The notes: generated by a model not told the origin, from the letters alone. Positions 1 to 13,975 are shown, numbered from the stretch's first letter. The stretch is DNA of 64,000 nucleotides from Bacteroidota bacterium (GCA_023957335.1 JAMLHC010000002.1:179441-243440), one strand, 5' to 3'. Numbers and translations: made by a program.

Positions 1-1
1 T

Positions 2-3000
2 GAGTTTTTCTATGATTTGAAACCTGATAATGAAATGATGAAAAAACTCATTATGGCAGGGAATGTTAAGGAAGCAGGTTATCATTTTATTATCAAAGCA
101 GGAAAAGAAGTTGGAGTAGGTGATACCACTTGGATAGAATTAAGGGGTTGGAATACTTGTATGCCTTTGTTTGATTTGGAAGCAAGAGATTTTGTTGGAA
201 TGATGGTGCAGGCTTTGCCTAGCGGATTTGGAAACGGATGTGAGTGTTTGACTTGTCCTCAGGTTCAGGAACATGTTGATTCCCTTTTTAAAGAATATCC
301 TGATTTGCAATATAATCATCCAAATTATGCTAGTGTGTTGACTACATTCTTGAATAAACACTTGAATACAAATCTGAGTTTTGCTGAATACCAAACTTTT
401 ATGGAGGGTTGTGGGATGTTTAGTAGAATTGATTTACGTTCTAGTACTTGTGATTACAGAATTAGTGTTGCTTCTGGGTCGGATTGTGTAGCGCATTTGG
501 ACACTCAGTTACGGCATTTGTATGTTCAAACTTCTGAAGCATTGATGTATAGCAAAACAAAGGTGAGTGCAGACAGTATTGTCTATTGCATTGACTTGAG
601 TATGTTTGATGCTACAGGAAGGTTGTGGGCTGCCGATACATTGGAAATGATTTTAGCAGAAACAGGAAATTGCAGTGGAGCAAATAATCAGGAGGATTTT
701 GTGGGTACTTTTAGTAGGTTGTTAATCTTGACACAAACTGAACCAGCCTGCGATGGTAGAACACTGTCGGAAGTAGTGACTAACCAATCCTATAGTGACA
801 GTATTTCAATAACTTCGTATTATAGTCTAGAATGGCTTAATTATTTGAATGATAAAGATACTGGATATTATTACCAGTGGAATCATGCAGAGTTGAGTTT
901 TGCTAAGAGAGCTGATTTTGCGGATACTCTACAAGTGTGGGCATTGGCTTGTGATGATGTGCAGGAATTAGTGTTTCCTTTCCACAAGAGTGGTTATGCA
1001 GAAGGGTTTGCAGAATATGGAATTTGTAGAATTGTGGAAGAAGATACTTTCTGTAATGACTGTGAAGAGATAAGGCATGAATTAATAAAGTACCAATATG
1101 CTTTAGGAACACCATCGAATGAAAGCCCATTAAGGTATTGGACAAGTAAAGATATACGAAAAGTTTTAAAGGATAGCTTGAATGCTGACTATAGGGTTGT
1201 ATTTGAGAATGATGGTTGTCAAAATTGCCCTGATAAGAAGTTGTTTGTTTGTGAGCAATTGAGCGAGGGTGGAAATGCTTTTGCAACACTTCTAAATAAC
1301 TTATTAGCAGATGGGAATCTTTTTGAAAATCATGACTTGACATCAGATACGGCATTGTTGCGAAAGATGAATTTTACTGGAGCATTTAATAGTCCACAAT
1401 TACTGTTTAGTTCTAATATGTCTATTGATACTATTGGAGAATCTCCTGGGTGGGTTTTTGATACATTAGCTAGTTTATGGAATCTACAAATTAAGTTTAA
1501 CCAAAAAACCACTTTGAAGTTTAGTATTGTACTTGAAGGAGATGGAACTAGTTTTAGTGATATTAAAAGAATATTAAGTCTTAAACCTAAGGCAAATAAC
1601 GGTGAAGTATATAGTTTTGAGCTGGTATTATTAACAGAAAACGATGTTTTAAATGCCATTGGAGAAAGCAATGGTTTGGTGATGAGCAATTGTTGTGAAT
1701 ATAGAGAGTTGTTGTTGTGCCCAAAAACTATGAGCAGAGAAGGTTTGTACCCTGTTGCTAAACCTTGCAAAGCTGATGAAATTGCCAATGCTTGGGAACA
1801 GTCTGGAATTATGTACTTACAATATAAAGATTCCTTGCGCAGAGATTTTAAGAATAAGTATGTGGAACACTGTCTGAACAATGCTAGTGAAAATGCATTG
1901 ATGAAATACCGTGAACAACAGTATCATTATACTCTCTATCATTATGATTTGGCGGGCAACCTTATTAAAACTGTACCTCCAGGGGGTGTTGAATATTTGG
2001 ATATGAATGCATTGAGAACGGATAGTATTGCAGATGCCAGAGATGATTATGATAAGGATTTGCATGTTTTCACTAAACACGGATTGGCAAGTTTGTATGA
2101 GTACAACAGTTTGAACCAACCTGTGTGGCAAGCCACTCCTGATGGGGGTGTAAGTAAGTTTTGGTATGACCGTTTGGGCAGGTTGGTGGTGAGCCAAAAT
2201 GCAAAGCAGAAGCTGTTAGGCGATGTGTATAGCTATACTGTGTATGACAGTCTAGGCAGAATTAGAGAGGTGGGTGAAATAACGGGAGATGCGATAAATG
2301 AAGTGAGTTTGCGAGCGGAAGACGGATATGAGGAGTATTATATGGGGTGGGTTGATGCAGGCTTAAAAACCCAGATTACGCGCACTTGGTATGATGCACC
2401 CATGAGCGAAGATATTGATGATGCGTTTGGAGTGGCAGGACAACAGTATTTGAGAAATAGGGTGAGCAGTACAGCTTATTTTGAATATGCTCCTACAGGT
2501 GAATGGGAAACTGAGTTTACTCGCGCTACTCACTACAGCTATGATATTCATGGAAATGTGCATACATTAATTCAGGATTTGCCAGAGTTGGCAAGTGTGG
2601 GTCATAGGTTTAAGTATGTGAGGTATGACTATGATTTGGTAAGTGGGAATGTGAAGCGAGTGAGGTATCAAGAGAATGCAGGCGATGCTTTTTACCACCG
2701 CTATGAATATGATGCAGACAATCGTCTTGTGTTGACAGAAACGAGTTTGGATGAACGTATTTGGGATAGGGATGCAGAGTATGAGTACTATTTGCATGGA
2801 CCATTAGCGAGGGTGTTGATTGGAGAAAAAATGGTTCAAGGGGTGGATTATGCTTATTCGCTACATGGTTGGTTGAAAGGTGTGAACTCTGTGAGTTTGA
2901 ATGCGAATAGGGATATGGGAAGAGATGGTGTAAGTGGAGGAAGAAGGTATGTTGCACGGGATGCGTTTGGCTTTGCGTTGAACTATTACTATGATGCAAA

Positions 3001-5992
3001 TAGTGAGGCAGACTATGAAGCAATTGCACCAGGTGCGAACTGGAATGGAGGAAGGTTGGAAACACAACTGACAAGCGGAGCTAACCAACTTTTTAATGGA
3101 AACATAAACAGTATGGTTACAAGTGTTACTCCATTTATGGAAGGTGGACCGATGGCAACGGTGTATAGGTACGATCAGTTGAACAGGATTAAGGGGATGA
3201 AAACCTACAGGAATTTTAATCAAAGTACGAATGTGTGGAACAGTGGAGGGACGAGCAATTTCTTTGCTACAAACTATAGTTATGATGCAAATGGAAATAT
3301 ACTTTCTTTGAACAGGAACAGTGGTGATGGAAGCAAACTGGGAATGGATGCGTTGACGTATCATTACAAGGCAGGAACAAATCAGTTGGAGTATGTGGAC
3401 GATGCGGTGACTGCGGGAGAACATGAGAATGATGTGGATGATCAGGAAGAAGATAATTATGTGTATGATGCAATTGGAAACTTGGTGCAAGATGTGGCAG
3501 AAGGGATTGAAGCAATTGAGTGGAATGTGTATGGAAAAGTGCGGAGAATAGTAAGAAGTTCTTCAGCAGTTGACAAACCCGACTTGGAATTTAGGTATGA
3601 CGCGGGAGGTCAACGAGTGGTTAAGATAGTGAAAGATGGAGCCAACGAGATTGACTGGAAGTATCAGTACTATGTGCGAGATGCGCAAGGGAATGTGATG
3701 GCTACTTATGACAAGAAAAGTGTGGTAAGCGGTGATACAAGTGTGTATAGGAAGATTAATGAATGGCTAATAACTAATGAGGGAGGAACTGCATTTGGCG
3801 AGTTTGTGGATGGGGAGTTGAAGGGCGGACAATTTGACGGGGCATTGATTGAAGCTATAGTAGAATGGAGTGAAACGGAGAATGTTCTTAGTGGCTATGA
3901 TGCGTCAGACTTTTGGGGTTGGGATGCAAATATGGCATCTCTTATTATGCAGCAGATTGTTTCGTATGCAAGCCCTCCAACCGAATACGAAGAAGTGTTT
4001 GACCTTGTGTGGAACGGTGGTCTGTTCCTTTCGGTAAACGCTGCCATTGTAAACAGTTGCGGAGTGAGCACTCAGAATATGCTGCAAAACCTGCTTATGT
4101 CTGACATGTTGAACAACCATTTGCTAATGGGCTTATATACCCAAAGCGCAGGTACGTTTATAGCCATGTACAGCTCAATGGGGGGATTGCCTCCTTACAA
4201 CGCTCCGGGAATGATAAACTGGATGTGGATGAACTCCACCAACATAGGGATTGCCACAGAGATACTGAATTTTTACAGCCCAACGCAAATACAAACGGCT
4301 TTGGACGGAATGCCTTATGTGGTGATGAAGGATTTTGCGATAAACAATTTCAGCGATTTTGTGAATACAATAAATCTGTGTATGATTGCTCTTCCGGGTA
4401 ATTTCTGGAGTGGGTTCAGCAACCAGGGCATGCTGCGGGATATTATTATGAATCACAGTGCGGCAGAGTACCTGCTTGCGCTGGCAATGAGCAACGACCC
4501 TGACTTTGTGAAAAATGTGGCGGAGAATTACAGCTACCTTGTGGCGGAGGCGGTGCGCAAGCTGGACGGCATGAGCGTGGACGCCTACCTTGCCTTGGTG
4601 AGAAACCACTACGGAGACGGAGTGCTGGCGGATTTGCTTGCCGCTTTGAGCGAAGACCTTATCTTTACGCAAAAGTTTGTGCTGGATGAGCACCACCTGT
4701 ACGGCAGTAGCCGTTTGGGCGTGAAAACCCACAGGAGGGTGCTGCTGCGCAAGGAGTTTAGTATTAGTGGATTTGAGGAAGATGGCACTTATATTACGGA
4801 TGAGGTGACAGATTCGCTTGTTTATGTGGCTTCGAGTGAATACTTTTGTAGGGTGTTGGCACAAAAGCAATATGAGTTGAGTAATCATTTGGGCAATGTT
4901 CTTGCAACAGTGCTTGACCGTAGAACAGGTGTTTTTGATGAGGGAGCTGATACGCTGATGTATTATGTGGCGGATGTTGTGAGTGCTACTTTGTATTATC
5001 CGTTTGGGCAAGCAATGTTGAGTTATTCTAATATTGAATTTGCTTTTACATACGGGTTTAATGGGAAAGAGAAAGATGAAGAAGGAATGGGCGGTGGTGG
5101 TGCGACATATGATTACGGATTTAGAATTTACAATCCTCAAATTGCACGGTTTTTAAGTGTTGACCCACTCAGTTCCTCATTTCCTTGGTACACTCCTTAC
5201 CAATTTGCTGGAAACATGCCAATAATCGCTATTGATTTAGATGGTTTAGAAGAATTTGTAATTATTAGATGGTGGGAAAACGGAAAGTACAAGGGCACAA
5301 CAGTGACATATTTGCCTAACAAAGGGAGTGTGAGATTTTATAGGAACAATCCTCAATATGTTAACCATACAATGTATTTAGATATGGAATACAGTGAAAG
5401 GCAATATAATTTAATGCATGGCGGAAAAATATTTAAAACAATGAAGGTCGGAGATAAAATTTTGATTAGTGCTCTTTCAGACGAAGCGAGATCTATAATA
5501 TACAATACAGATAATAACCAGACAAAACCCAAAGAAGGTTCAATATTGACCCCAACACCTGTTAATGAAAAAGAGAGAATTAAAGCAAATCAACAAAAAG
5601 CTGCATTTAGCCCTGAGAATAATAGGTGGGGTGGAAGCGAGATAACTCCAAAAGTCACTAATTTACATTATAATACTGACAATAGTGACCCACTTGTTCT
5701 ATCGCAGAGTGTTATTGACGGGTTTGCTGCTGCGCTTCTAATTAATCCAGATTATGTAATTAGAATTACTGGGCATACAGACAATGTTGGCACTGATCAA
5801 TATAATAGAGATCTAGGATTAAGAAGAGCAGAAGAAACTAGAGATTATTTAATATCAAAAGGAATATCCCCTGATAGAATTGTAGTTGAAACACAGGGTG
5901 AGTCAAATCCTATAAGTTCAAATGAGACTAGTGAAGGCAGAGCTCAAAACAGAAGAGTAGAAATTAGTATAGAACCCCAAAGATTAAATTAA
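2..5992 (+). CDS. Rhs/YD-repeat family polymorphic toxin, 5' end outside the window; Rhs core ends at DLDGL (5234-5248); the C-terminal tip carries an OmpA-like peptidoglycan-binding domain
   Basis: The frame is open from nt 2; the listed first codon at 17 is TTG and there is no upstream stop. Many YD repeats are present (YHYDLAGNLI, YEYNSLNQPV, WYDRLGRLV, YSYDIHGNV, YDYDLVSGNV, YEYDADNRLV, YRYDQLNRI, YSYDANGNIL, YVYDAIGNLV, FRYDAGGQRV). The Rhs-associated core tail reads YDYGFRIYNPQIARFLSVDPL..PWYTPYQFAGNMPIIAIDLDGLEE. It is followed by ITGHTDNVGTDQYNRDLGLRRAEETRDYL...NRRVEISI, an OmpA C-terminal type motif. Confidence 0.9.
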   Translation, partial: EFFYDLKPDNEMMKKLIMAGNVKEAGYHFIIKAGKEVGVGDTTWIELRGWNTCMPLFDLEARDFVGMMVQALPSGFGNGCECLTCPQVQEHVDSLFKEYPDLQYNHPNYASVLTTFLNKHLNTNLSFAEYQTFMEGCGMFSRIDLRSSTCDYRISVASGSDCVAHLDTQLRHLYVQTSEALMYSKTKVSADSIVYCIDLSMFDATGRLWAADTLEMILAETGNCSGANNQEDFVGTFSRLLILTQTEPACDGRTLSEVVTNQSYSDSISITSYYSLEWLNYLNDKDTGYYYQWNHAELSFAKRADFADTLQVWALACDDVQELVFPFHKSGYAEGFAEYGICRIVEEDTFCNDCEEIRHELIKYQYALGTPSNESPLRYWTSKDIRKVLKDSLNADYRVVFENDGCQNCPDKKLFVCEQLSEGGNAFATLLNNLLADGNLFENHDLTSDTALLRKMNFTGAFNSPQLLFSSNMSIDTIGESPGWVFDTLASLWNLQIKFNQKTTLKFSIVLEGDGTSFSDIKRILSLKPKANNGEVYSFELVLLTENDVLNAIGESNGLVMSNCCEYRELLLCPKTMSREGLYPVAKPCKADEIANAWEQSGIMYLQYKDSLRRDFKNKYVEHCLNNASENALMKYREQQYHYTLYHYDLAGNLIKTVPPGGVEYLDMNALRTDSIADARDDYDKDLHVFTKHGLASLYEYNSLNQPVWQATPDGGVSKFWYDRLGRLVVSQNAKQKLLGDVYSYTVYDSLGRIREVGEITGDAINEVSLRAEDGYEEYYMGWVDAGLKTQITRTWYDAPMSEDIDDAFGVAGQQYLRNRVSSTAYFEYAPTGEWETEFTRATHYSYDIHGNVHTLIQDLPELASVGHRFKYVRYDYDLVSGNVKRVRYQENAGDAFYHRYEYDADNRLVLTETSLDERIWDRDAEYEYYLHGPLARVLIGEKMVQGVDYAYSLHGWLKGVNSVSLNANRDMGRDGVSGGRRYVARDAFGFALNYYYDANSEADYEAIAPGANWNGGRLETQLTSGANQLFNGNINSMVTSVTPFMEGGPMATVYRYDQLNRIKGMKTYRNFNQSTNVWNSGGTSNFFATNYSYDANGNILSLNRNSGDGSKLGMDALTYHYKAGTNQLEYVDDAVTAGEHENDVDDQEEDNYVYDAIGNLVQDVAEGIEAIEWNVYGKVRRIVRSSSAVDKPDLEFRYDAGGQRVVKIVKDGANEIDWKYQYYVRDAQGNVMATYDKKSVVSGDTSVYRKINEWLITNEGGTAFGEFVDGELKGGQFDGALIEAIVEWSETENVLSGYDASDFWGWDANMASLIMQQIVSYASPPTEYEEVFDLVWNGGLFLSVNAAIVNSCGVSTQNMLQNLLMSDMLNNHLLMGLYTQSAGTFIAMYSSMGGLPPYNAPGMINWMWMNSTNIGIATEILNFYSPTQIQTALDGMPYVVMKDFAINNFSDFVNTINLCMIALPGNFWSGFSNQGMLRDIIMNHSAAEYLLALAMSNDPDFVKNVAENYSYLVAEAVRKLDGMSVDAYLALVRNHYGDGVLADLLAALSEDLIFTQKFVLDEHHLYGSSRLGVKTHRRVLLRKEFSISGFEEDGTYITDEVTDSLVYVASSEYFCRVLAQKQYELSNHLGNVLATVLDRRTGVFDEGADTLMYYVADVVSATLYYPFGQAMLSYSNIEFAFTYGFNGKEKDEEGMGGGGATYDYGFRIYNPQIARFLSVDPLSSSFPWYTPYQFAGNMPIIAIDLDGLEEFVIIRWWENGKYKGTTVTYLPNKGSVRFYRNNPQYVNHTMYLDMEYSERQYNLMHGGKIFKTMKVGDKILISALSDEARSIIYNTDNNQTKPKEGSILTPTPVNEKERIKANQQKAAFSPENNRWGGSEITPKVTNLHYNTDNSDPLVLSQSVIDGFAAALLINPDYVIRITGHTDNVGTDQYNRDLGLRRAEETRDYLISKGISPDRIVVETQGESNPISSNETSEGRAQNRRVEISIEPQRLN

Positions 5993-5993
5993 T

Positions 5994-6758
5994 ATGAAAA
6001 TAATACTTGTTTTAACTTCAATTTTTATTTCGTTTTTATTGGGATTTTCATTTCGAAATCACCACTTTAATAAATTAAGCGCTTCTAATTCTGCCAAAAT
6101 GCAAATTTCCAACGTTGATACAAGCAGGTTTGAAAACGTTTTAGAAATGTATGAAGATATATTCTCTGAAAACTTAAGGATAACTGATATCTATATTGAT
6201 AGTTTATTTTGTTACCCAAACATGAGAGACAGTGAAGACATAACATCAGACCCATATATGACTTTAGAAGACTACTTCTATAATAACTGTATCATTGCAT
6301 TAAAAATGGTTAATATTGACAATACTAAAGATATTTTTAGTATTAATAAAAACGGATTCTGTACATTGATAATTGAAAAGAATAAAGAAAAACTAAGGAA
6401 AATAACATATTTAAATAGTGGAATTGAAACAATCGTTAATATAGGAGAATTGGATGAAATAAGTGTGCATAACACTATAAATGGGGATACTGTTGGAAAT
6501 GCCCTATGGATTGATAAAAACTCAAAGCTTACTCGATTATATCAAAACAATTTAGATTCTTTCAGTATAAACTATGTTAAGGTAAATACAACATTTGATA
6601 CAGTGAAAAACAATAGCCCTTTTGTTGAAGTAAATACAACCACAATTGTAACAAATCCTATAAAATATGGCTTTGACTACTTTTTCGATAATAATAATAA
6701 TACTGTTAGAAAAAGAACTCATTTTAATGGCGATTCTATTTCTACTATTCAGAGGTGA
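5994..6758 (+). CDS. putative cognate immunity/partner protein of the resident Rhs tip (imm1), signal-anchored
   Basis: The ATG lies 2 nt after the rhs stop. The N-terminus is hydrophobic (MKIILVLTSIFISFLLGF). The ORF is very AT-rich and shows no enzymatic motif. Function is assigned by position only. Confidence 0.55.
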   Translation: MKIILVLTSIFISFLLGFSFRNHHFNKLSASNSAKMQISNVDTSRFENVLEMYEDIFSENLRITDIYIDSLFCYPNMRDSEDITSDPYMTLEDYFYNNCIIALKMVNIDNTKDIFSINKNGFCTLIIEKNKEKLRKITYLNSGIETIVNIGELDEISVHNTINGDTVGNALWIDKNSKLTRLYQNNLDSFSINYVKVNTTFDTVKNNSPFVEVNTTTIVTNPIKYGFDYFFDNNNNTVRKRTHFNGDSISTIQR

Positions 6759-6766
6759 AGGGGGTA

Positions 6767-6794
6767 GGTAGTGTTGTAGATGTGTTGATTTTAC
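6767..6794 (+). repeat. G/T-rich cassette-junction motif, type 1 (GGTAGTGTTGTAGATGTGTTGATTTTAC)
   Basis: 26 of 28 nt are identical to 8701-8728. It shares the 14-nt core GGTAGTGTTGTAGA with 6805-6818 and with the reverse complement of 12158-12171. Confidence 0.8.
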
Positions 6795-6801
6795 ATTTTA
6801 A

Positions 6802-6821
6802 CAAGGTAGTGTTGTAGATTT
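6802..6821 (+). repeat. G/T-rich cassette-junction motif, type 2 (CAAGGTAGTGTTGTAGATTT); left arm of a perfect 20-bp inverted repeat
   Basis: Its exact reverse complement, AAATCTACAACACTACCTTG, is at 12155-12174. Confidence 0.85.
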
Positions 6822-6892
6822 GGTGTTTTGAGAAAAACCAGAACTTAACCTACTAAAAACCAAAGAAAAGTATCTTTCAGCAATAACAAAAA

Positions 6893-6918
6893 AGCGGATA
6901 TAAAGTCCGCTCATTTTT
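6893..6918 (+). terminator. Rho-independent terminator after imm1
   Basis: The stem is AGCGGA / TCCGCT with loop TATAAAG, followed by CATTTTT. Confidence 0.6.
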
Positions 6919-6946
6919 CTAATAAAATCATTTAAGAAAAACTTTT

Positions 6947-7012
6947 TATCTTCGCTCTACCAAACATGAGAAATTACCATCAAAATACCGCCAGTTTTTA
7001 CAACCCGTTTGG
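6947..7012 (+). repeat. conserved class-A orphan leader plus first codons (TATCTTCG..ATG..SFYNPFG); inverted partner at 11923-11988
   Basis: Hand alignment against the reverse complement of 11923-11988 gives 55 of 66 identical positions. It contains TATCTTCG, one mismatch from the Bacteroidota -7 box TAnnTTTG, 11 nt upstream of the ATG. Confidence 0.75.
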
Positions 7013-8036
7013 TAGTAGTATGATGGGGTATTCTAATGAGGAATTTGCTTACTCCTATGACTTTAATGGTAAAGAGACAGACGATGAAACAGGATTGCAG
7101 GATTATGGAATGCGTATTTATAATAAAGCTTATGGTAAGTTTTTGAGCGTTGACCCTTTGACATCATCGTATCCTTGGTACACACCTTATCAGTTTGCAG
7201 GAAATAAACCGATTAGATATATTGATTTGGATGGTTTAGAGGAATATGATGTTATAATTTGGCTGGGAGCTGACGGAGTATATAGAACAAGAATGCACTT
7301 AATTAATGAAGAAGGGCCTTTGAAAGTAAATTATTATGCAAGAAAATTAGCACACACAGAACCAATGGACGGTCTTCCTGGGAAACCACCTTGTCCTGAT
7401 TGCGCACCGCAAAAGAAGCAATCTACAGATGAACTTATAGTCTCAAAAACTGTAGGTGAAAATGGTGTCACTGAGAATAATATTTGGGCGACTGATAAAA
7501 TGAAAAATCATACAGAAGGGGCTAATAGCGCAGCTAATCAATCTATTAACAATGGAGTAGTATTTTCAGACCCGGGTTTTAATGGAACAATAGTTACATC
7601 AATTCAAGTTAGACGCACTCTAAATACAATAGAAACACCAATTATTAAAAGATCTACTTGGGAAGAAAAAGGAGGTGGTACCTTTAGAAATGCAACAGAT
7701 AGTGAGATTAATAGTTTCTTTAATAATAATACACTTATGGATAAAGCTTTGAAAAAGGTTAATACTTACAAGAATCCCACAGTATATGTTGCAACAGAAG
7801 AACACTTGGTCGCACTTAAAAAACGAAATGATGAACTCGGATTAAATATCAAAATTGAAGTAAATCCTGCAAAGTTAACCCCGTCATTTACTAATGTAAC
7901 AAGTTATTATTTTGCTTTCGAATATGAAGAGGGAACTACAACTAGTACTACCACCACCACTACAACTACCACCACCACGGCTACAGTAACAGAAGAAGGA
8001 GTAACAAATAACACACCAACAACTAGAACAAGATGA
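6966..8036 (+). CDS. orphan Rhs C-terminal toxin cassette, class A (A1): short Rhs core tail plus unknown toxin domain with a poly-Thr tail
   Basis: The ORF opens MRNYHQNTASFYNPFGSSMMGYSNEEFAYSYDFNGKETDDE..YGMRIYNKAYGKFLSVDPLTSSYPWYTPYQFAGNKPIRYIDLDGLEE. This parallels residues of the resident Rhs core tail. About 260 aa with no motif I recognise follow, ending in TTTSTTTTTTTTTTTAT. Confidence 0.75.
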   Translation: MRNYHQNTASFYNPFGSSMMGYSNEEFAYSYDFNGKETDDETGLQDYGMRIYNKAYGKFLSVDPLTSSYPWYTPYQFAGNKPIRYIDLDGLEEYDVIIWLGADGVYRTRMHLINEEGPLKVNYYARKLAHTEPMDGLPGKPPCPDCAPQKKQSTDELIVSKTVGENGVTENNIWATDKMKNHTEGANSAANQSINNGVVFSDPGFNGTIVTSIQVRRTLNTIETPIIKRSTWEEKGGGTFRNATDSEINSFFNNNTLMDKALKKVNTYKNPTVYVATEEHLVALKKRNDELGLNIKIEVNPAKLTPSFTNVTSYYFAFEYEEGTTTSTTTTTTTTTTTATVTEEGVTNNTPTTRTR

Positions 8037-8713
8037 AAATGAAACTTATTATATTGTTTGGACTTGCGATTTGCAATTTAAACTGTCAAGGTTCTTTAGT
8101 ACAATCTATTTCAAAAGATACTAATAAAGAAGATAAATTAATATTTTACCATGCTGATTGGGCTGAGTTTGTCTTAATAATTGTGAAAAAATCACCTGTT
8201 TTAGACACTGAAATTCCTTTATCATGCAGAAATGGCAAAAGCAATAAAAGGCTCATAAATGAAGACAAAGGAGATACTACTTTTTTTTATGTATCTGAAC
8301 ATAAATTATCCTTTAAAGAAAGGGATATTCTTTTTAAAGATAGCTTGATTCAATTTAAGGGATATAGATTTGTTGATTTAAAAGAAATTGACACAGGTAT
8401 TATATCAGATAAACACAGGATGAGTGTTACCTGTTTTGAATGTATATTAGACACAATCTATGACTCTACATTTAAACTCAATTTTCAAGGCAACCACTAT
8501 GAAACTTATTTTTTAGAAAATATAGAATGTATATTTAAATCAAATGAAAGGTTTTTTATGTCAAGTTATCCAATTCAAAATTATTATCAAATACCTCTTT
8601 CAATTGGTTACTTACTTAATGTTGGATTATTCACAGGTTTGGTTTCTGTATCTGATGAAGAAGGGTTTTTTATAGATTGGAGCGAGTTGTCATGGAATTT
8701 GGTAGTGTTGTAG
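8033..8713 (+). CDS. putative immunity lipoprotein for A1 (imm2)
   Basis: ATGA start/stop overlap with A1. The signal peptide has a Cys (MKMKLIILFGLAICNLNCQG). Function is assigned by position only. Confidence 0.55.
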   Translation: MKMKLIILFGLAICNLNCQGSLVQSISKDTNKEDKLIFYHADWAEFVLIIVKKSPVLDTEIPLSCRNGKSNKRLINEDKGDTTFFYVSEHKLSFKERDILFKDSLIQFKGYRFVDLKEIDTGIISDKHRMSVTCFECILDTIYDSTFKLNFQGNHYETYFLENIECIFKSNERFFMSSYPIQNYYQIPLSIGYLLNVGLFTGLVSVSDEEGFFIDWSELSWNLVVL

Positions 8714-8728
8714 AGTTGTTGATTTTAC
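8701..8728 (+). repeat. G/T-rich cassette-junction motif, type 1 (GGTAGTGTTGTAGAGTTGTTGATTTTAC)
   Basis: 26 of 28 nt match 6767-6794. It contains the imm2 stop codon (TAG 8711-8713). It ends 5 nt before the stop of the first minus-strand gene. Confidence 0.8.
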
Positions 8729-8733
8729 CTTAC

Positions 8734-9291
8734 TCACCATTTATGAAAATAAGAATCAATTTGTTTTTTTGTTTTTATTATTCTCATCCCATTTATTCCT
8801 CCATAAAAACGAATATTTGGAATGCTGTCTAACTTTCCTCTTTTAAAATAATAGTAATCATTTGGAACAGTATCTTTATATTTACTTTCTATCCGCATTT
8901 TAGAATTTACTGAATCCTTGCTCATTTCAAATACATTGTCGTTATATATAAGACAAACATAAATCCATTCAGATGCAGTTTGATGAGTTTGAATAAAACA
9001 AAAAGTATCATTATTCTTTAATAAAACAGTATCTAAATCGGAAGTTTCTAAAGCATGATTTAAGACTTTGCTAAACTTACTAATTTCGTTTTTTTCTTGT
9101 TTTCTATTACTAAAAAAGTATCTTAGTCCTTTCCTTTTGGGTGAGATAGAACGAATATGCTTTTTGAAAATATTAATTGAAACATCTAATATGTCCCCTT
9201 CTTTTTTTTTCTCATTAATTTGTGAAGATGTAAGAGAAAAAAAACTTAAAGTCAATATTGTAATTAAGTAAAAAAAAAGTTTTTTAATCAT
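8734..9291 (-). CDS. putative immunity protein for B1 (imm3), secreted
   Basis: The longest ORF runs to 9345. The ATG at 9291 gives a typical signal peptide (MIKKLFFYLITILTLSFFSLTSSQ) and overlaps the B1 stop by only 8 nt. Confidence 0.5.
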   Translation of the reverse strand: MIKKLFFYLITILTLSFFSLTSSQINEKKKEGDILDVSINIFKKHIRSISPKRKGLRYFFSNRKQEKNEISKFSKVLNHALETSDLDTVLLKNNDTFCFIQTHQTASEWIYVCLIYNDNVFEMSKDSVNSKMRIESKYKDTVPNDYYYFKRGKLDSIPNIRFYGGINGMRIIKTKKQIDSYFHKW

Positions 9292-10357
9292 ATTTAAAAG
9301 GTGATTGAGAATGATAATTAACCCAAATAAATTCTTGAAATTCACTACCCATAGGAGAGTAATCTAGTAATCCATTATATCCAGGATTAACAATTTGAAT
9401 TAATGTGGTTGTATGTACATCAAAAGTAGAATAGCTACCTGTTGAAGTTTTTTGAACTAATTGACCTTTATAATTTCCTAGCTTATCTTTATCTAAACTA
9501 TAATGGGTTCTTAATGGGTAACCATGCTCCAGTCTAATTTGATTTTCAACATGAACTGCAAATACTTCTGAATATGGTATGGTCTCACTATTATATCCTT
9601 CTGTGGAATACCATATTTTATCTGGGTTAAGTCCGAAAACATTTTGTGATTTATTGTAATGATAATCCCAAGCATGCCCGAGTTCATGTCCTAGTACTAA
9701 AAAAGGATCCATTGGTGTATTTACAAAATCATCTCCTTTTGCTACAGGTACATTAACTACCACATTAGGATTCCACCCGACTGTTTTAGCATCTACATTA
9801 TAGTAATTTCTTCTTCCATTTTTACTCTGTCTCGTTATTAGTAATGAACTTTCCATTGAGTGTAAATCATCAATCATCATTTTACCTATTGGGCCAGTAT
9901 ATAACCTATTTAATGCCTGTACAGTTTCGCAAATTACATTATCATTTCCATCATAATCTATTCCTGGGGTATATATGTATGTTCCTGTCTTACTACTTGC
10001 ATCAGGAATTTTTATTGTATCACCCGCCACATCGCTAAACCAAATTGGATTATTCGCAAAGGCAGCATAAACAGAAATACTTGGATTAGGTTTTGGGTCA
10101 ACATTCCACCTCCTACCCAACCTAGCATCATACTGCCAATACTCCGCACTATAAGAATTTCCTTTCCCATAAATCTCATCATCTTTCTCTTGGGTATTCA
10201 TACCGTACGAGTAAGCAAATTCAGAGTTAGAATACCCCATCATACTCATACCGAACGGGTAATACATTACAGCCTCCCCCAACCCCTCCAAAGGAGGGGA
10301 GTATTTCCCCCTTTTGGGGGGATTAAGGGGGGCAGTTATTTGACCGCTTTTTTGCAT
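9284..10357 (-). CDS. orphan Rhs-tip toxin cassette, class B (B1): HExxH zinc-metallopeptidase-like toxin
   Basis: Rhs homology begins at VMYYPFGMSMMGYSNSEFAYSYG (in-frame ATG at 10267). The class-B core terminus is YDARLGRRWNVDPKPNPSISVYAAFANNPIWFSDVAGDT. The toxin part has LVLGHELGHAWDY (HELGH, 9674-9688). The first ~30 codons of the listed ORF run through a GC-rich hairpin element and are probably not coding. Confidence 0.7.
   Translation of the reverse strand: MQKSGQITAPLNPPKRGKYSPPLEGLGEAVMYYPFGMSMMGYSNSEFAYSYGMNTQEKDDEIYGKGNSYSAEYWQYDARLGRRWNVDPKPNPSISVYAAFANNPIWFSDVAGDTIKIPDASSKTGTYIYTPGIDYDGNDNVICETVQALNRLYTGPIGKMMIDDLHSMESSLLITRQSKNGRRNYYNVDAKTVGWNPNVVVNVPVAKGDDFVNTPMDPFLVLGHELGHAWDYHYNKSQNVFGLNPDKIWYSTEGYNSETIPYSEVFAVHVENQIRLEHGYPLRTHYSLDKDKLGNYKGQLVQKTSTGSYSTFDVHTTTLIQIVNPGYNGLLDYSPMGSEFQEFIWVNYHSQSPFKYD
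10273..10333. repeat. GC-rich nested-hairpin element (REP/MITE-like) immediately 5' of cassette B1
   Basis: Hairpin 1 is CCCCTCC-AAA-GGAGGGG (10283-10299). Hairpin 2 is CCCCC-TTTT-GGGGG (10307-10320). They are flanked by CCCCC (10276-10280) and GGGGG (10327-10331). The surrounding DNA is AT-rich. Confidence 0.6.
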
Positions 10358-10483
10358 GGTGTTTTCAATGTCAAAAGTAGGGATTTTTTGCCTTGCTTAT
10401 CATAGTAATCTCTTAATCACAAAAAATCACAGTTTAGACACTTCCACAAAACCCCCAATCTGATACATTACCTACATTACCCA

Positions 10484-10975
10484 TTACCATATTTTATGTA
10501 CATTCCTCCAATACAATATCATTGAATCATTATTATTGAATTTAAAGTATGCATTTTTATTACTTACATGTATGTTATACCACACATTTTTCTCGAATCC
10601 AAAACTCAAAGTGTCAGTAATAATATGCTTTCGTGTATCCGTCCACTTGTAATTAGAATTAGTCTTGAAGAAATGTATATATTTTTTCGCTTTATGATTT
10701 TCAGATTTCAGACTAGCAAAACACAATTTTACTATATCATATTTAGCAGGAACTCCTTGAAAACAAAAAGAATCAACACTAAGTTCACAAACTGTAACCC
10801 CTTCTAATTTGCAGTTGCTTTTAATATATTCTCTTGTTATTTCAAATGAGCAACTTTTTGCAAAATAGCCCATGTAAATAAGATAGCATGAACTAAGAGA
10901 GCAACACAAGAAAATTAAAATTATCTTATCTGGTCGCACTATCCTTAGCAACTTTAAGTATTTTTTGTTCTGCAT
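10484..10975 (-). CDS. putative immunity lipoprotein for A2 (imm4)
   Basis: The ORF is open to 11014. Plausible starts are the ATG at 10975 (MQNKKYLKLL..) or the GTG at 10939 (V-RPDKIILIFLCCSLSSC, lipobox-like). It overlaps the end of A2. Confidence 0.5.
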   Translation of the reverse strand: MQNKKYLKLLRIVRPDKIILIFLCCSLSSCYLIYMGYFAKSCSFEITREYIKSNCKLEGVTVCELSVDSFCFQGVPAKYDIVKLCFASLKSENHKAKKYIHFFKTNSNYKWTDTRKHIITDTLSFGFEKNVWYNIHVSNKNAYFKFNNNDSMILYWRNVHKIW

Positions 10976-11969
10976 TTCGTTTAAATTCATATCCTTTTCC
11001 TTTATAACTATCAATTGTTACTCTTGGGTCTAGCATATCCTTAGGATTGTTCTTATCTAATCCTAGTTTTTCCATTTCACTGATTTTCCATTCTTTGTAT
11101 CTTACTAACATGCCGAAAAACATGCTTGCAGTATACGCAGAATTAACAGCTTCGTCACTTGCAGGTCTTCCTGTTATATTATCAATTCCTCTTTTATGTC
11201 TTTGTTCTGTAACTCTATTATAGTAAGCATCCCAGCCTTCTATTGCTGCTTTATCACCCGGTAAAGTCCTTACATCTTCTAACCAACAAAAAGTTCCAAG
11301 GTCTTCTTGGTCGCGGTCGTGTGTGTATGCGATAGCATCAACTTCATCAATTGGGTTTATAGACCAGTCATAGCTGTTATAGGCTTGTACATCTTTATGA
11401 GGTCCAAAAATTGTTTTTGCCCCCTCGCCTTGAAAGAACCCATGTCTTCCTATAGCACTTATACTAAGTCCTCCTCCTTGAGCTATCTCCATTTCCTCAA
11501 CTTCATCATATATTTCACCATTTGCATTTTCAAATTGATAGATATATTTTACTCCCCTACCTTCGGGTCCAAAACTTTCCGAATACTTTTCATAATTAAA
11601 TCCTTCGATATCTCTGTAATCACACACGTCTATTATTACTGGAGCATTCCCATCAATTATTTTCACAGTATATGTAATATATTCTGCACCTTCCAAGTCG
11701 ATTCCGTCAATAGGTCTATTTCCTGCATATTGATAAGGTGTCCACCAAGGGAACTTGCCAGCTTTAGGGTCACGTGACTTGAATCTAATAATTCTAGGGT
11801 CATAATCCCTATATTCAAAAGCATAAGAATTTCCATCTCCTGCTATTTCGCTATCCATATATTGTCCACCGAACCCATAAGCATAGCTAAACTCCGCGTT
11901 GCTGTAAGCTTGCAGGGTGCTTCCGAACGGGTTGTAAAAACTGGTAGTATTTTGGCGTTGTTTTCTCAT
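10926..11969 (-). CDS. orphan Rhs C-terminal toxin cassette, class A (A2): Rhs core tail plus unknown toxin domain
   Basis: The ORF opens MRKQRQNTTSFYNPFGSTLQAYSNAEFSYAYGFGG..YRDYDPRIIRFKSRDPKAGKFPWWTPYQYAGNRPIDGIDLEGAE. About 250 aa follow, containing NPIDEVDAIAYTHDRDQ. Confidence 0.75.
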   Translation of the reverse strand: MRKQRQNTTSFYNPFGSTLQAYSNAEFSYAYGFGGQYMDSEIAGDGNSYAFEYRDYDPRIIRFKSRDPKAGKFPWWTPYQYAGNRPIDGIDLEGAEYITYTVKIIDGNAPVIIDVCDYRDIEGFNYEKYSESFGPEGRGVKYIYQFENANGEIYDEVEEMEIAQGGGLSISAIGRHGFFQGEGAKTIFGPHKDVQAYNSYDWSINPIDEVDAIAYTHDRDQEDLGTFCWLEDVRTLPGDKAAIEGWDAYYNRVTEQRHKRGIDNITGRPASDEAVNSAYTASMFFGMLVRYKEWKISEMEKLGLDKNNPKDMLDPRVTIDSYKGKGYEFKRNAEQKILKVAKDSATR

Positions 11970-11988
11970 GTTTTGTAAGGCGAAGATA
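11923..11988 (-). repeat. conserved class-A orphan leader plus first codons; inverted partner of 6947-7012
   Basis: 55 of 66 positions are identical to 6947-7012 after reverse complementing. It includes TATCTTCG, the ATG, and the block TTTTTACAACCCGTT. Confidence 0.75.
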
Positions 11989-12098
11989 TGGATTTATTTA
12001 GAAAGGCTCAATACAAGTTATTTCGGATGTTTTTTCTAAGAAAATGAGGGAGGTCGCAGGGGTTGTTATTCAAACCCTGATTTTTTGACACCAAGCAC

Positions 12099-12124
12099 AA
12101 AAAAAGCCCCGAACTGGCAGGGCT
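12099..12124 (-). terminator. Rho-independent terminator after imm5 (minus strand)
   Basis: On the minus strand the stem is AGCCC / GGGCT with a 10-nt loop, followed by a run of six T. On the plus strand it is followed by TAAAAA, so it is strand-specific. Confidence 0.55.
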
Positions 12125-12154
12125 TAAAAATATATTGATGTGTAATCTTTCCTA

Positions 12155-12174
12155 AAATCTACAACACTACCTTG
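12155..12174 (-). repeat. G/T-rich cassette-junction motif, type 2; right arm of the perfect 20-bp inverted repeat
   Basis: AAATCTACAACACTACCTTG is the exact reverse complement of 6802-6821. It spans the imm5 stop codon (12167-12169). Confidence 0.85.
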
Positions 12175-12997
12175 AAATTATCTGACATGCTTTGAATTCT
12201 ACAACATCAATTAAATGATAGTTAATATCCTTATTGTCAATGCCATAGTATTTTTTCTTATCATCGAAATATGAACTATCATAATTTATAAATTTCAGAA
12301 CATAAATACTGTCTTTAAAATAAATCAATATGGTGTTATTTTTAACGACTTCTGCTTTTAAGTATGATACCCATTGAGCATAATTTTTTGTATATACTAC
12401 ATCGTGATAGTTTTCTTCAATTACGTACTCACATGTAGCATTAAGATATTCATCTAAATAATATTCAAGAGTTGAAATTGAATCAATTAACTTTATTTCA
12501 CTGTAATTACGCATAACTTCGTTATGTCCTCGCATATATGAAAATAAGATGTCCTTTGATAACTTAATACTTTCGTTTGTAGGCAAATTCAGGTAATTTA
12601 TAATTTTCTCAATTTCTCTTGTTGCAAAAGAAAAACGAATGTTTTCAGAGCCACCAAATAAAGTAATATCAAAGTCGTTTTTGTAATACAATTCAGATAT
12701 ATCAGAGTCGAAATACAACATATTTGCTGAAAATATTGAAATATAATTCCAATTACTGTCCAATGCAATAAACAGGTTCGCAAAATAGCTATGACGAACA
12801 GTATCTGACATTTCAATAATTTTTAATTTGTCGTTGAACATGATAAGTGTGTCTGTCGGTGTAAATCTACTGACATACAAGCTGCAATAATCAGGTACTA
12901 CAATTTTTGATTCTTCTGAGACATGTTTAACCTTTTCGACACATGAAACCATGTTGAAACCAAGCACATAAATCAGTACGCAAATTTGAGTTTTCAT
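12167..12997 (-). CDS. putative immunity lipoprotein for B2 (imm5)
   Basis: It starts 12 nt after the B2 stop. The signal peptide has a Cys (MKTQICVLIYVLGFNMVSC). Function is assigned by position only. Confidence 0.55.
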   Translation of the reverse strand: MKTQICVLIYVLGFNMVSCVEKVKHVSEESKIVVPDYCSLYVSRFTPTDTLIMFNDKLKIIEMSDTVRHSYFANLFIALDSNWNYISIFSANMLYFDSDISELYYKNDFDITLFGGSENIRFSFATREIEKIINYLNLPTNESIKLSKDILFSYMRGHNEVMRNYSEIKLIDSISTLEYYLDEYLNATCEYVIEENYHDVVYTKNYAQWVSYLKAEVVKNNTILIYFKDSIYVLKFINYDSSYFDDKKKYYGIDNKDINYHLIDVVEFKACQIISR

Positions 12998-13009
12998 GAA
13001 GTTAAATTA

Positions 13010-13975
13010 TCAGTTCTGGTGCTTATAAATATTGATTGGTTCTGTTTTATACCTAAGTAAGTAAGCACTAAAATAATATTGATGAAAACCAATAAATAAA
13101 TACTTGTCCTTAATGTCCTTATATTTTGGGTCTTTACTTTTTCGCAAATCTGCATAAGACTTTGGCAATCCCTTTTCATAAGAACTTAAAAACCTTTCAG
13201 AACCTGATAACATTAAATTTTGTCCAACTTTAGACTCAACGGTATGGTCATCTCTATTTATTAACAGGCATTTATTATCAAGACCCCAATTGAACTTAAT
13301 TGCTTTTAGATAGCCATGCCCCGTTTCATGAACTATCGAATTAGACATGACAAGCGTTGAATTGTTTTTCATTGCTTCTGTAAATTCACTATAATAAATA
13401 ACACTTCTATTACTGAAATTCACGCCCCTCACTCCATGAGAATAAAAACTTTCAAAAGAAATATAGTGGTCTGTTTCGTTGAGTTTGATTTGGTCAAATG
13501 TCAAAGTTGTTTCTTCTACTACAACATTAAGATTATTATCCCTGTACATCAGCTCTAAATCCTTAAATAGTCGGTTTTTATAAGCATCAAAATTTTTATT
13601 CATCTGCTCTTCTGTCCAACCTTTATCTTTGTTTGCTTCCGAATATCCCTTTTTCAGTTCTATAGTATTTACAAAAACAGTTGTATCCCCCGCCACATCA
13701 GTAAACCAAATCGGATTATTCCCAAAACAAGCATAAACACTAACACTTGGATTTGGTTTTGGGTCGTTGTTCCAACGCCTTCCCAGTCTGCTGTCATACA
13801 TCCAGTATTCCGCACTGTATGCACCTTCAAAGATTTCATCATCTTTGAGTTGTCCGTTTTGTCCGAAGGAATATGAGAACTCCGCGTTGCTATAACTCAT
13901 CATAGAGCTTCCGAACGGATAATAAAGAAATCCGCTTTGAGCCTTAGGTAGATATGATGTTAGAGGATGCATCAA
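13010..13975 (-). CDS. orphan Rhs-tip toxin cassette, class B (B2): HExxH zinc-metallopeptidase-like toxin
   Basis: The Rhs homology reads GFLYYPFGSSMMSYSNAEFSYSFGQNG..YDSRLGRRWNNDPKPNPSVSVYACFGNNPIWFTDVAGDT. The toxin part has SIVHETGHGYL (HETGH, 13316-13330). The listed start is a TTG inside the 3' end of the integrase gene, so a genuine independent start is doubtful. Confidence 0.7.
   Translation of the reverse strand: MMHPLTSYLPKAQSGFLYYPFGSSMMSYSNAEFSYSFGQNGQLKDDEIFEGAYSAEYWMYDSRLGRRWNNDPKPNPSVSVYACFGNNPIWFTDVAGDTTVFVNTIELKKGYSEANKDKGWTEEQMNKNFDAYKNRLFKDLELMYRDNNLNVVVEETTLTFDQIKLNETDHYISFESFYSHGVRGVNFSNRSVIYYSEFTEAMKNNSTLVMSNSIVHETGHGYLKAIKFNWGLDNKCLLINRDDHTVESKVGQNLMLSGSERFLSSYEKGLPKSYADLRKSKDPKYKDIKDKYLFIGFHQYYFSAYLLRYKTEPINIYKHQN

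Follow-up and report, generated by a model that had tools for sequence, protein, structure and literature searches.

A probable Rhs toxin-tip shufflon with an adjoining tyrosine recombinase in a Bacteroidota genome

The locus described here lies in a 64,000-nucleotide stretch of a Bacteroidota bacterium genome (GCA_023957335.1, JAMLHC010000002.1:179441-243440; the whole stretch is referred to as the window) and comprises an rhs polymorphic toxin gene, its presumed immunity gene imm1, four orphan tip/immunity modules and, at the far end, the gene for a tyrosine recombinase. The plus strand carries rhs and imm1 (the CT1-imm1 module) followed by A1-immA1. The minus strand, read from the recombinase, carries B2-imm5, A2-immA2 and B1-immB1, and the two arrays converge at about position 8720. 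Three of the four orphan modules are inverted relative to rhs, and all six open reading frames (ORFs) behind the recombinase are co-directional. The locus is probably a Rhs toxin-tip shufflon, apparently undescribed, in which exchange would take place at a short site, S, in the Rhs-associated core. An earlier note on this DNA had proposed an inversion at a 20-bp inverted repeat (the 20-mer), an idea that is probably right in spirit and wrong about the site. The features of the locus are given below, where M denotes a motif at the ends of the immunity genes and L with a number denotes a contig or locus used for comparison.

1-5992, plus: rhs, the 3' two-thirds of the full-length gene (ORF 17-5992, open past the left window edge; Pfam RHS_repeat, PF05593, and OmpA)
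4994-5007, plus: S0, TATTATCCGTTTGG (YYPFG), inside rhs at the start of the Rhs-associated core
5994-6758, plus: imm1, presumed immunity gene for the current rhs tip; no Pfam match
6767-6797, plus: motif M copy 1 (type I), 28/31 identical to 8701-8731
6802-6821, plus: motif M copy 2 (core 6805-6818), the left arm of the 20-mer
6893-6918, plus: hairpin (6893-6911) and T-run, terminator-like on both strands
6947-6998, plus: A-type leader with the A1 ATG at 6966, about 83% identical to 11937-11988
6999-7012, plus: S1, TACAACCCGTTTGG (YNPFG), where strain junctions fall
6966-8036, plus: orphan tip A1, with Rhs_assc_core (TIGR03696 from residue 12) and then an unassigned C-terminal domain
8033-8713, plus: immA1, whose stop codon is the second TAG of motif M
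8701-8731, plus: motif M copy 3 (type I), between the convergent immA1 and immB1
8734-9345, minus: immB1, with a 185-aa version in four public contigs
9284-10357, minus: orphan tip B1, with Rhs_assc_core and then a Peptidase_M91/XopG-like domain
10251-10264, minus: S2, TATTACCCGTTCGG (YYPFG), the junction relative to L004
10450-10473, minus: degenerate copy of motif M (6 mismatches in 24), just 3' of the immA2 stop, heading the B-type tail 10265-10483
10484-11014, minus: immA2 (start codon uncertain)
10926-11969, minus: orphan tip A2, TIGR03696 from residue 12
11923-11936, minus: S3, TACAACCCGTTCGG (YNPFG)
12099-12125, minus: terminator-like hairpin (12125-12104) and T-run
12155-12174, minus: motif M copy 4, the right arm of the 20-mer, whose first TAG is the imm5 stop codon
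12167-12997, minus: imm5 (stop codon 12167-12169)
13010-13975, minus: orphan tip B2, the recombinase-proximal cassette
13911-13924, minus: S4, TATTATCCGTTCGG, starting 19 nt past the recombinase stop codon
13944-15044, minus: tyrosine recombinase of a divergent subfamily, 366 aa (PF00589, 30.3 bits)

These genes form a Rhs orphan array, in which a full-length rhs with RHS repeats (its counterpart in GCA_019638055.1 is annotated as 3705 aa) is accompanied by modules that retain the core and have divergent C-termini and non-homologous immunity ORFs. The A1, A2, B1 and B2 tips match TIGR03696 from the first profile position and then diverge, with scores above the cut-off for A1 and A2 and below it for B2 and B1. 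A1 and A2 are homologous, A1 aligns with the rhs C-terminal region at 61% over 97 aa, and protein comparison finds no significant mutual similarity among the immunity ORFs of the window. The layout also has two features of a shufflon, with a recombinase adjacent to the segments and inverted short sites bounding in-frame alternative C-termini.

The short site S, TAYWAYCCGTTYGG, encodes YYPFG or YNPFG in codon register, the first residues of the Rhs-associated core, and aligns with position 1 of the TIGR03696 profile. It occurs exactly five times in the 64 kb (S0 at 4994+, S1 at 6999+, S2 at 10264-, S3 at 11936- and S4 at 13924-), where it heads all five copies of the Rhs core; five occurrences were reached in 0/100 shuffles. 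All six plus-by-minus inversions between S sites, made in silico, yield in-frame ORFs, and the rhs ORF, whose start lies beyond the left edge and which is counted here from position 17, reaches 1963-1995 aa with a B1, A2 or B2 tip.

Differences between strains map to this site. Exactly the same recombinase protein is encoded by 18 public contigs, and its housekeeping flank is 100% identical. At S4, the upstream sequence is identical at 200/200 positions in L004, L005, L007 and L013 and only 40-59% identical just past the site. L007 (GCA_039810705.1) carries the window's A1 tip directly behind S4, with 114/114 identity after the site, and the upstream flanks of S4 in L007 and of S1 in the window are unrelated (29%). 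An inversion between S1 and S4 in a window-like array would produce exactly the L007 linkage. At S1, the leaders of L102 and L103 have diverged (81% and 63%, respectively) and are followed by 186/186 identity to A1, and at S2 the B-type leader of L004 is 98% shared with a different tip behind it. The toxin-side strain junctions that can be mapped all lie within S, and none lies in the 20-mer. Within S itself, TATTATCC is in every case kept on the recombinase side and GGTAGTAG with A1, and the polymorphic positions 9 and 12 go with either side, which confines the exchange to about 5 nt, C/GTTY/G (positions ~8-13). The size of this interval fits the overlap region of tyrosine recombinases. The S1-S2 segment, which contains the convergent A1-immA1 and immB1-B1 modules, is kept as a unit in other samples and is built like a segment of a shufflon. 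Public short-read contigs often end in S or a few bases past it (L007-L012, L103 at 10258, L104 at 7013 and L110-L114), with contig L112 ending exactly at the last base of S, and such ends fit the presence of mixed arrangements.

The recombinase represents a divergent subfamily, as its family profile has no match in the PDB by sequence and its Pfam matches are barely above threshold. Residues R178, K205, H289, R292, H315 and Y325, taken here as the candidate catalytic set of a tyrosine recombinase, are invariant in 18 homologues, so that the enzyme looks active as judged from its sequence. The search for relatives returned more than 1,200, of which the best 120 were listed, and a scan of one genome per species gave 344 loci. 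Eighty loci from Chitinophagaceae, Flavobacteriales, Cytophagales and Sphingobacteriaceae, with recombinases of 41-54% identity, were examined with a profile derived from the five core copies of the window, counting an ORF within 450 nt of the recombinase, and a regular-expression version was also run. An ORF with the Rhs core reads away from the recombinase at 56 of the 80 loci (25 downstream, 31 upstream), and the opposite-strand control gives such an ORF at 0/80. The association of this recombinase with the Rhs core thus extends across the family.

At many of these loci the rhs gene and the recombinase-adjacent orphan are linked by inverted repeats that begin at S or a few bases from it, with arms of 78 nt (100%) in L040 and 337 nt (96%) in L053. 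A simple two-state layout is common among these loci, as in L052, with rhs at 23-7486 (plus), immunity ORFs at 7539-8300 (plus) and 8329-8892 (minus), an orphan tip at 8828-9874 (minus), the recombinase at 9977-11059 (plus), and inverted repeats of 169 nt (95%) that start from S. The two opposed arrays of the window are found again in L043 and in the cultured isolate Limnovirga soli KCS-6 (L062). In the latter (NZ_WHPF01000004.1, 9986-20903), the recombinase and two co-directional cassettes converge on an orphan and a full-length rhs, and there are four S sites (L062 positions 11152, 13179, 15726 and 18047). At least 17 genomes (L022-L087; for example L024 at 9871-, L053 at 9876- and L077 at 5198-) have a conserved box, AGTTCTTTGA, at a fixed distance of 44-48 nt upstream of the S site next to the recombinase. 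The box also precedes some internal orphan sites, such as the one at 13179 in L062, and might act as an expression signal or as an accessory binding site.

In the mechanism proposed for the locus, the recombinase would exchange strands inside S at about positions 8-13 (C/GTTY/G), and the DNA between two sites would be inverted whenever one on plus (S0 or S1) recombined with one on minus (S2, S3 or S4). Recombination of S0 with S2, S3 or S4 would place the B1, A2 or B2 tip in frame on the Rhs shell, with the matching immunity gene directly downstream. S1 paired with a minus site would reshuffle the orphans, and directly repeated S sites could allow cassettes to be excised or inserted. It is reasonably likely that this is a Rhs toxin-tip shuffling locus of shufflon- or integron-like layout, with the recombinase exchanging at S. 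The anatomy of the sequence, the strain junctions at S and the link between the recombinase family and the Rhs core are shown, and catalysis by this recombinase and inversion within a lineage are inferred. The broader proposal, in which an undescribed and widespread Bacteroidota recombinase family is dedicated to Rhs, exchanges at the YYPFG codons and switches weapon and antidote reversibly, with M as a second cassette boundary, is evenly balanced between right and wrong.

The inverted repeat from which the inversion idea started is itself real. CAAGGTAGTGTTGTAGATTT at 6802-6821 (plus) is matched by its exact reverse complement at 12155-12174, and 0/100 dinucleotide-preserving shuffles gave such a match, even allowing 3 mismatches. 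The mirror-image elements described inside its arms are also present, namely the terminators (6893-6911 with a T-run on plus, 12125-12104 with a T-run on minus) and the conserved leader (6947-7015 versus 11920-11988, 69 nt at 83%) with homologous class-A ORFs behind both copies. The left arm, placed about 40 nt past the imm1 stop, begins 43 nt downstream of it (the stop being at 6758); the right arm does span the imm5 stop codon (12167-12169), and inversion of 6822-12154 would interrupt no ORF, as had been stated. Sites S1 and S3 fall inside the leader that the earlier note had named. The part of its inversion idea that holds is that mirror-image elements bound an interval within a toxin/immunity cassette locus, and the position of a tyrosine recombinase gene at the array end makes a programmed inversion reasonable. 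The part that is not supported is the 20-mer as crossover, and the junctions map to S.

The mirror image arises because two cassette arrays oppose each other: CT1-imm1 and B2-imm5 both end with M, a terminator, an A-type leader and S, and face one another. The 20-mer is the pair of best-preserved copies of motif M, inverted only through their membership in opposing arrays. The suspicion that it might be a common dispersed repeat can be set aside, as an exact search of the JGI metagenome collection gave four matches, none near toxin genes. Three of them lie in one conserved stop-free sequence, which we take to be ABC-transporter ATPase-like from our own reading, with no family search made, and one lies in an unrelated sequence. 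This is a chance-level result, so the 20-mer is not a common repeat and the collection offers no isoform data. The predicted isoform inverted at the 20-mer was not found: the public contigs that cross a copy of it (L001, L002 and L003) have the window linkage, imm1 to A1 and imm5 to A2. Searches for exact protein matches to imm1, imm5, A1, immA1 (with two start codons) and immB1 gave the window linkage only, and those for A2 and immA2 gave no record.

Motif M has a 14-nt core, GGTAGTGTTGTAGA, that occurs four times in the window (6767+, 6805+, 8701+ and 12158-), and a looser scan adds a fifth, degenerate copy at 10473-. Three of the good copies are directly oriented, and the 20-mer is one pair among at least five copies. 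The copies lie on, or within ~45 nt past, the stop codons of small ORFs in the immunity position, with two tandem copies 3' of the imm1 stop, a copy overlapping the immA1 stop, the degenerate copy 3' of the immA2 stop and a copy overlapping the imm5 stop. The immA1 and imm5 genes terminate at two different TAG codons of M, in different frames. Other strains of the same species have M past other immunity genes (imm274 in L004, imm144 in L105), and M caps the 3' ends of tip-immunity modules in this species. Its consensus is AGGTAR followed by TGTTKYAGATTKGGKGTTTTG, also given as AGGTAR followed by TGTTKYAGATTKGG and further bases, and it heads two types of inter-cassette tail, A-type and B-type, that are otherwise dissimilar. 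M has no dyad symmetry and no similarity to S, and the arrays found with homologous recombinases in 80 other genomes do not contain it. M may mark the module end and provide stop codons or insulation there, or it may be a second cassette boundary or a minor secondary exchange point.

Other roles for M were considered and rejected. M is not the conserved end of paralogous immunity genes, as the proteins share no significant similarity. The -7 box of Bacteroidetes promoters has the consensus TAnnTTTG, and, on a direct reading of the sequence, promoter function is not the main role of M, as only the 6805 copy fits this box, the invariant part of M is elsewhere and a terminator follows; a sigma-70 scan is at background. 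An attC-like fold in which M pairs with S gives no consistent structure across tails (Z-scores of -2.4 and -0.65, with differing pairings), and as a reverse-complement relative of S, M would have only TACAAC in common with it. The two M copies after imm1 stand in tandem, 38 nt apart (6767 and 6805), and the 31-nt direct repeat 6767-6797/8701-8731 (28/31) flanks a unit consisting of M, the A-type tail, S1, A1 and immA1. This arrangement resembles an insertion or deletion footprint at M.

The cassettes have several further features. The tip fused to rhs ends with an OmpA-family peptidoglycan-binding domain (PF00691, 1.6e-18; window 5700-5992, residues ~1902-1984) and not with a recognisable toxin fold, and B1 matches Peptidase_M91 (8.3e-14) and, weakly, the XopG/HopH type III effector metallopeptidases. 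The B-type leader (10265-10357) holds G/C-rich self-complementary runs, CCCCCCAAAAGGGGG and CCCCTCCTTTGGAGGGG, inside the nominal B1 N-terminus, and the leader with these runs is 100% conserved in strain L004 despite the different tip behind it. GC content is 32.8% in the cassette region 6759-13943 versus 37.9% in 15045-64000 and is lowest in the immunity genes (~28-30% per kb).

Several other explanations compete with exchange at S. If the 20-mer pair were the crossover, 6822-12154 would flip, by the recombinase or by general recombination, and swap the class-A orphans behind rhs-imm1 and B2-imm5. The 20/20 identity amid otherwise unalignable spacers speaks for such a flip, as do the boundary that M forms between variable immunity genes and conserved tails in comparisons of strains and the 31-nt direct repeat 6767-6797/8701-8731, which looks like an insertion footprint at M. 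This scenario is nevertheless very unlikely, given that M does not resemble S, lacks dyad symmetry and is missing from the 80 homologous-recombinase genomes, that every contig crossing the 20-mer has the window linkage and none ends there, and that the flip would alter no protein because both orphans lie behind terminators. Twenty bases are also at or below the usual minimum length for RecA-dependent exchange. The tips could alternatively have moved by ordinary Rhs C-terminal displacement, through RecA-dependent recombination and horizontal transfer, with the recombinase a bystander (e.g. an element remnant) and S and M the edges of homology. Displacement is a well-known source of orphan tip arrays in rhs (Jackson et al. 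2009, as cited in PMC13183296), homologous exchange could make use of the conserved tails (~200 nt, 100% identical), and the long inverted repeats at other loci would permit RecA-dependent inversion. Homologous exchange within a core of ~250 nt should scatter the junctions, however, whereas L007 joins unrelated flanks exactly at S and continues with 114/114 identity. Together with the outward-reading Rhs core beside the recombinase at 56/80 loci versus 0/80 on the control strand, and with a recombinase flank that is a fixed housekeeping neighbourhood and not a mobile element, this makes displacement an unlikely account.

Insertion of some phages regenerates the 3' end of a tRNA gene, and the recombinase and array could in a similar way be a mobile island that uses the YYPFG codons of rhs as its att site and brings a replacement tip, inversion being incidental. 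The att-like position of S directly 3' of the recombinase gene, arrays that in some genomes have directly repeated S sites only (for example L094 and L043) and the lower GC content of the array (32.8% versus 37.9%) would suit an integrative element. In the window and at many homologue loci, however, the S beside the recombinase and the S of rhs point in opposite directions, which is not the product of simple integration, and the outer recombinase flank is identical across strains with the inner side alone varying, so that this origin appears quite improbable.

Exchange at S remains the preferred reading, and a number of observations weigh against it. The evidence is comparative throughout and consists of differences between strains, and no pair of assemblies from the same clone in opposite orientations was found; an all-against-all comparison of the 80 homologue loci likewise gave no informative opposite-orientation pair, and look-ups of recombinase clusters P0046 and P0001 gave variable arrays and contigs ending at S with no inversion pair. 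The contig breaks near S could stem from repeats of at least 31 nt in the conserved core-coding region. The repeats flanking S in the window are only 74-83% identical, with the 14-nt core as their common part, whereas other genomes have near-perfect arms, and position 12 of S is T at the plus sites and C at the minus sites, a mismatch that could lower the efficiency of exchange. No Rhs core adjoins the recombinase at 24 of the 80 homologue loci. M is also a strain boundary, as the window and L004 have the same B-type tail (100% identity) from just past M through S2 and differ in the upstream immunity genes, and this boundary between variable immunity genes and conserved tails is not explained by a model with S only.

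Judged by its layout, the nearest mechanistic analogue of the locus appears to be the R64/IncI1 shufflon, in which Rci acts on alternative pilV C-termini. As in R64, the recombinase adjoins the segments, several short sites are present in both orientations, and alternative C-terminal ends are convergent (A1-immA1 versus immB1-B1 in S1-S2), with a constant N-terminal gene that would take a tip in frame. The target here is instead a Rhs polymorphic toxin, every tip is accompanied by its own immunity gene, the site is part of a conserved YYPFG codon block, and directly repeated sites are also present. The hsdS shufflons of Type I restriction systems and the Gin-inverted G segment of phage Mu are similar in that inversion would swap a variable, target-specifying C-terminus while the constant part stays, and differ in protein class, in recombinase subfamily and in that the cognate immunity gene is here switched along with the tip. 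Integrons share with the locus a recombinase at one end with an adjacent site, strain-variable cassettes and a recurrent element past each cassette ORF. The comparison fails on the integrase and on attC: the integron-integrase model NF040815 scores 22.2 bits against a cut-off of 220, there is no consistent attC-like fold, crossover is within coding sequence and the arrays occupy both strands.

The described systems nearest to the locus in their biology are Rhs orphan arrays and the rAID-1 loci of gut Bacteroidales. The latter are arrays of orphan immunity genes without a toxin-arming role (Ross et al. 2019, bioRxiv 10.1101/471110; PMC12247911), defined by a recombinase more than 44% identical to B. 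fragilis BF9343_RS08045 and at least two co-directional downstream genes with a GC content of 41% or less. The locus resembles rAID-1 in that a tyrosine recombinase heads a co-directional, low-GC toxin-defence array (six ORFs, 32.8% GC), with recurring intergenic motifs and a conserved motif just 3' of the recombinase stop. Its units are complete, each with a Rhs-core tip and an immunity ORF, and not orphan immunity genes, and it is further set apart by description in that the array faces a full-length rhs and shares its in-frame site. The named homologues among the best 120, most of which have no taxon name, are Chitinophagales, Chitinophagaceae, Cytophagaceae, Xanthocytophaga, Puia and unclassified Bacteroidia/Bacteroidota, with no Bacteroidales among them. 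XerC/D recombinases beside polyimmunity loci were described by Zhang et al. 2012 (PMC3482391), and the main text of Milman et al. 2023 does not mention Rhs. The orphan arrays attributed to Rhs displacement (Jackson et al. 2009, as represented in the citing article) also consist of a full-length rhs and then silent tip/immunity modules that retain part of the core. Displacement would involve homologous recombination, variable junctions and same-strand orphans, in contrast to the single window of ~5 nt and the three of four inverted orphans found here, where a dedicated recombinase family also co-occurs. A full-text literature search of incomplete coverage found no description of recombinase-driven Rhs tip inversion, and novelty is to that extent provisional.

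If S-type sites are the reason for the assembly breaks, loci of this kind would be systematically fragmented in metagenome assemblies. Limnovirga soli KCS-6, as a cultured strain with the same layout, would provide a ready experimental model. In Rhs and other polymorphic toxins, the usual explanation for tip swaps is rare homologous recombination, with orphan tips seen as a passive archive. With a dedicated recombinase at work on one fixed in-frame site, tip switching would instead become programmed, and possibly reversible and regulated. Such a recombinase would offer a mechanistic account for the recombinases found beside toxin/immunity arrays in Bacteroidota, rAID-like loci included, and a single clone could then deploy several toxins, each with its matching immunity gene.

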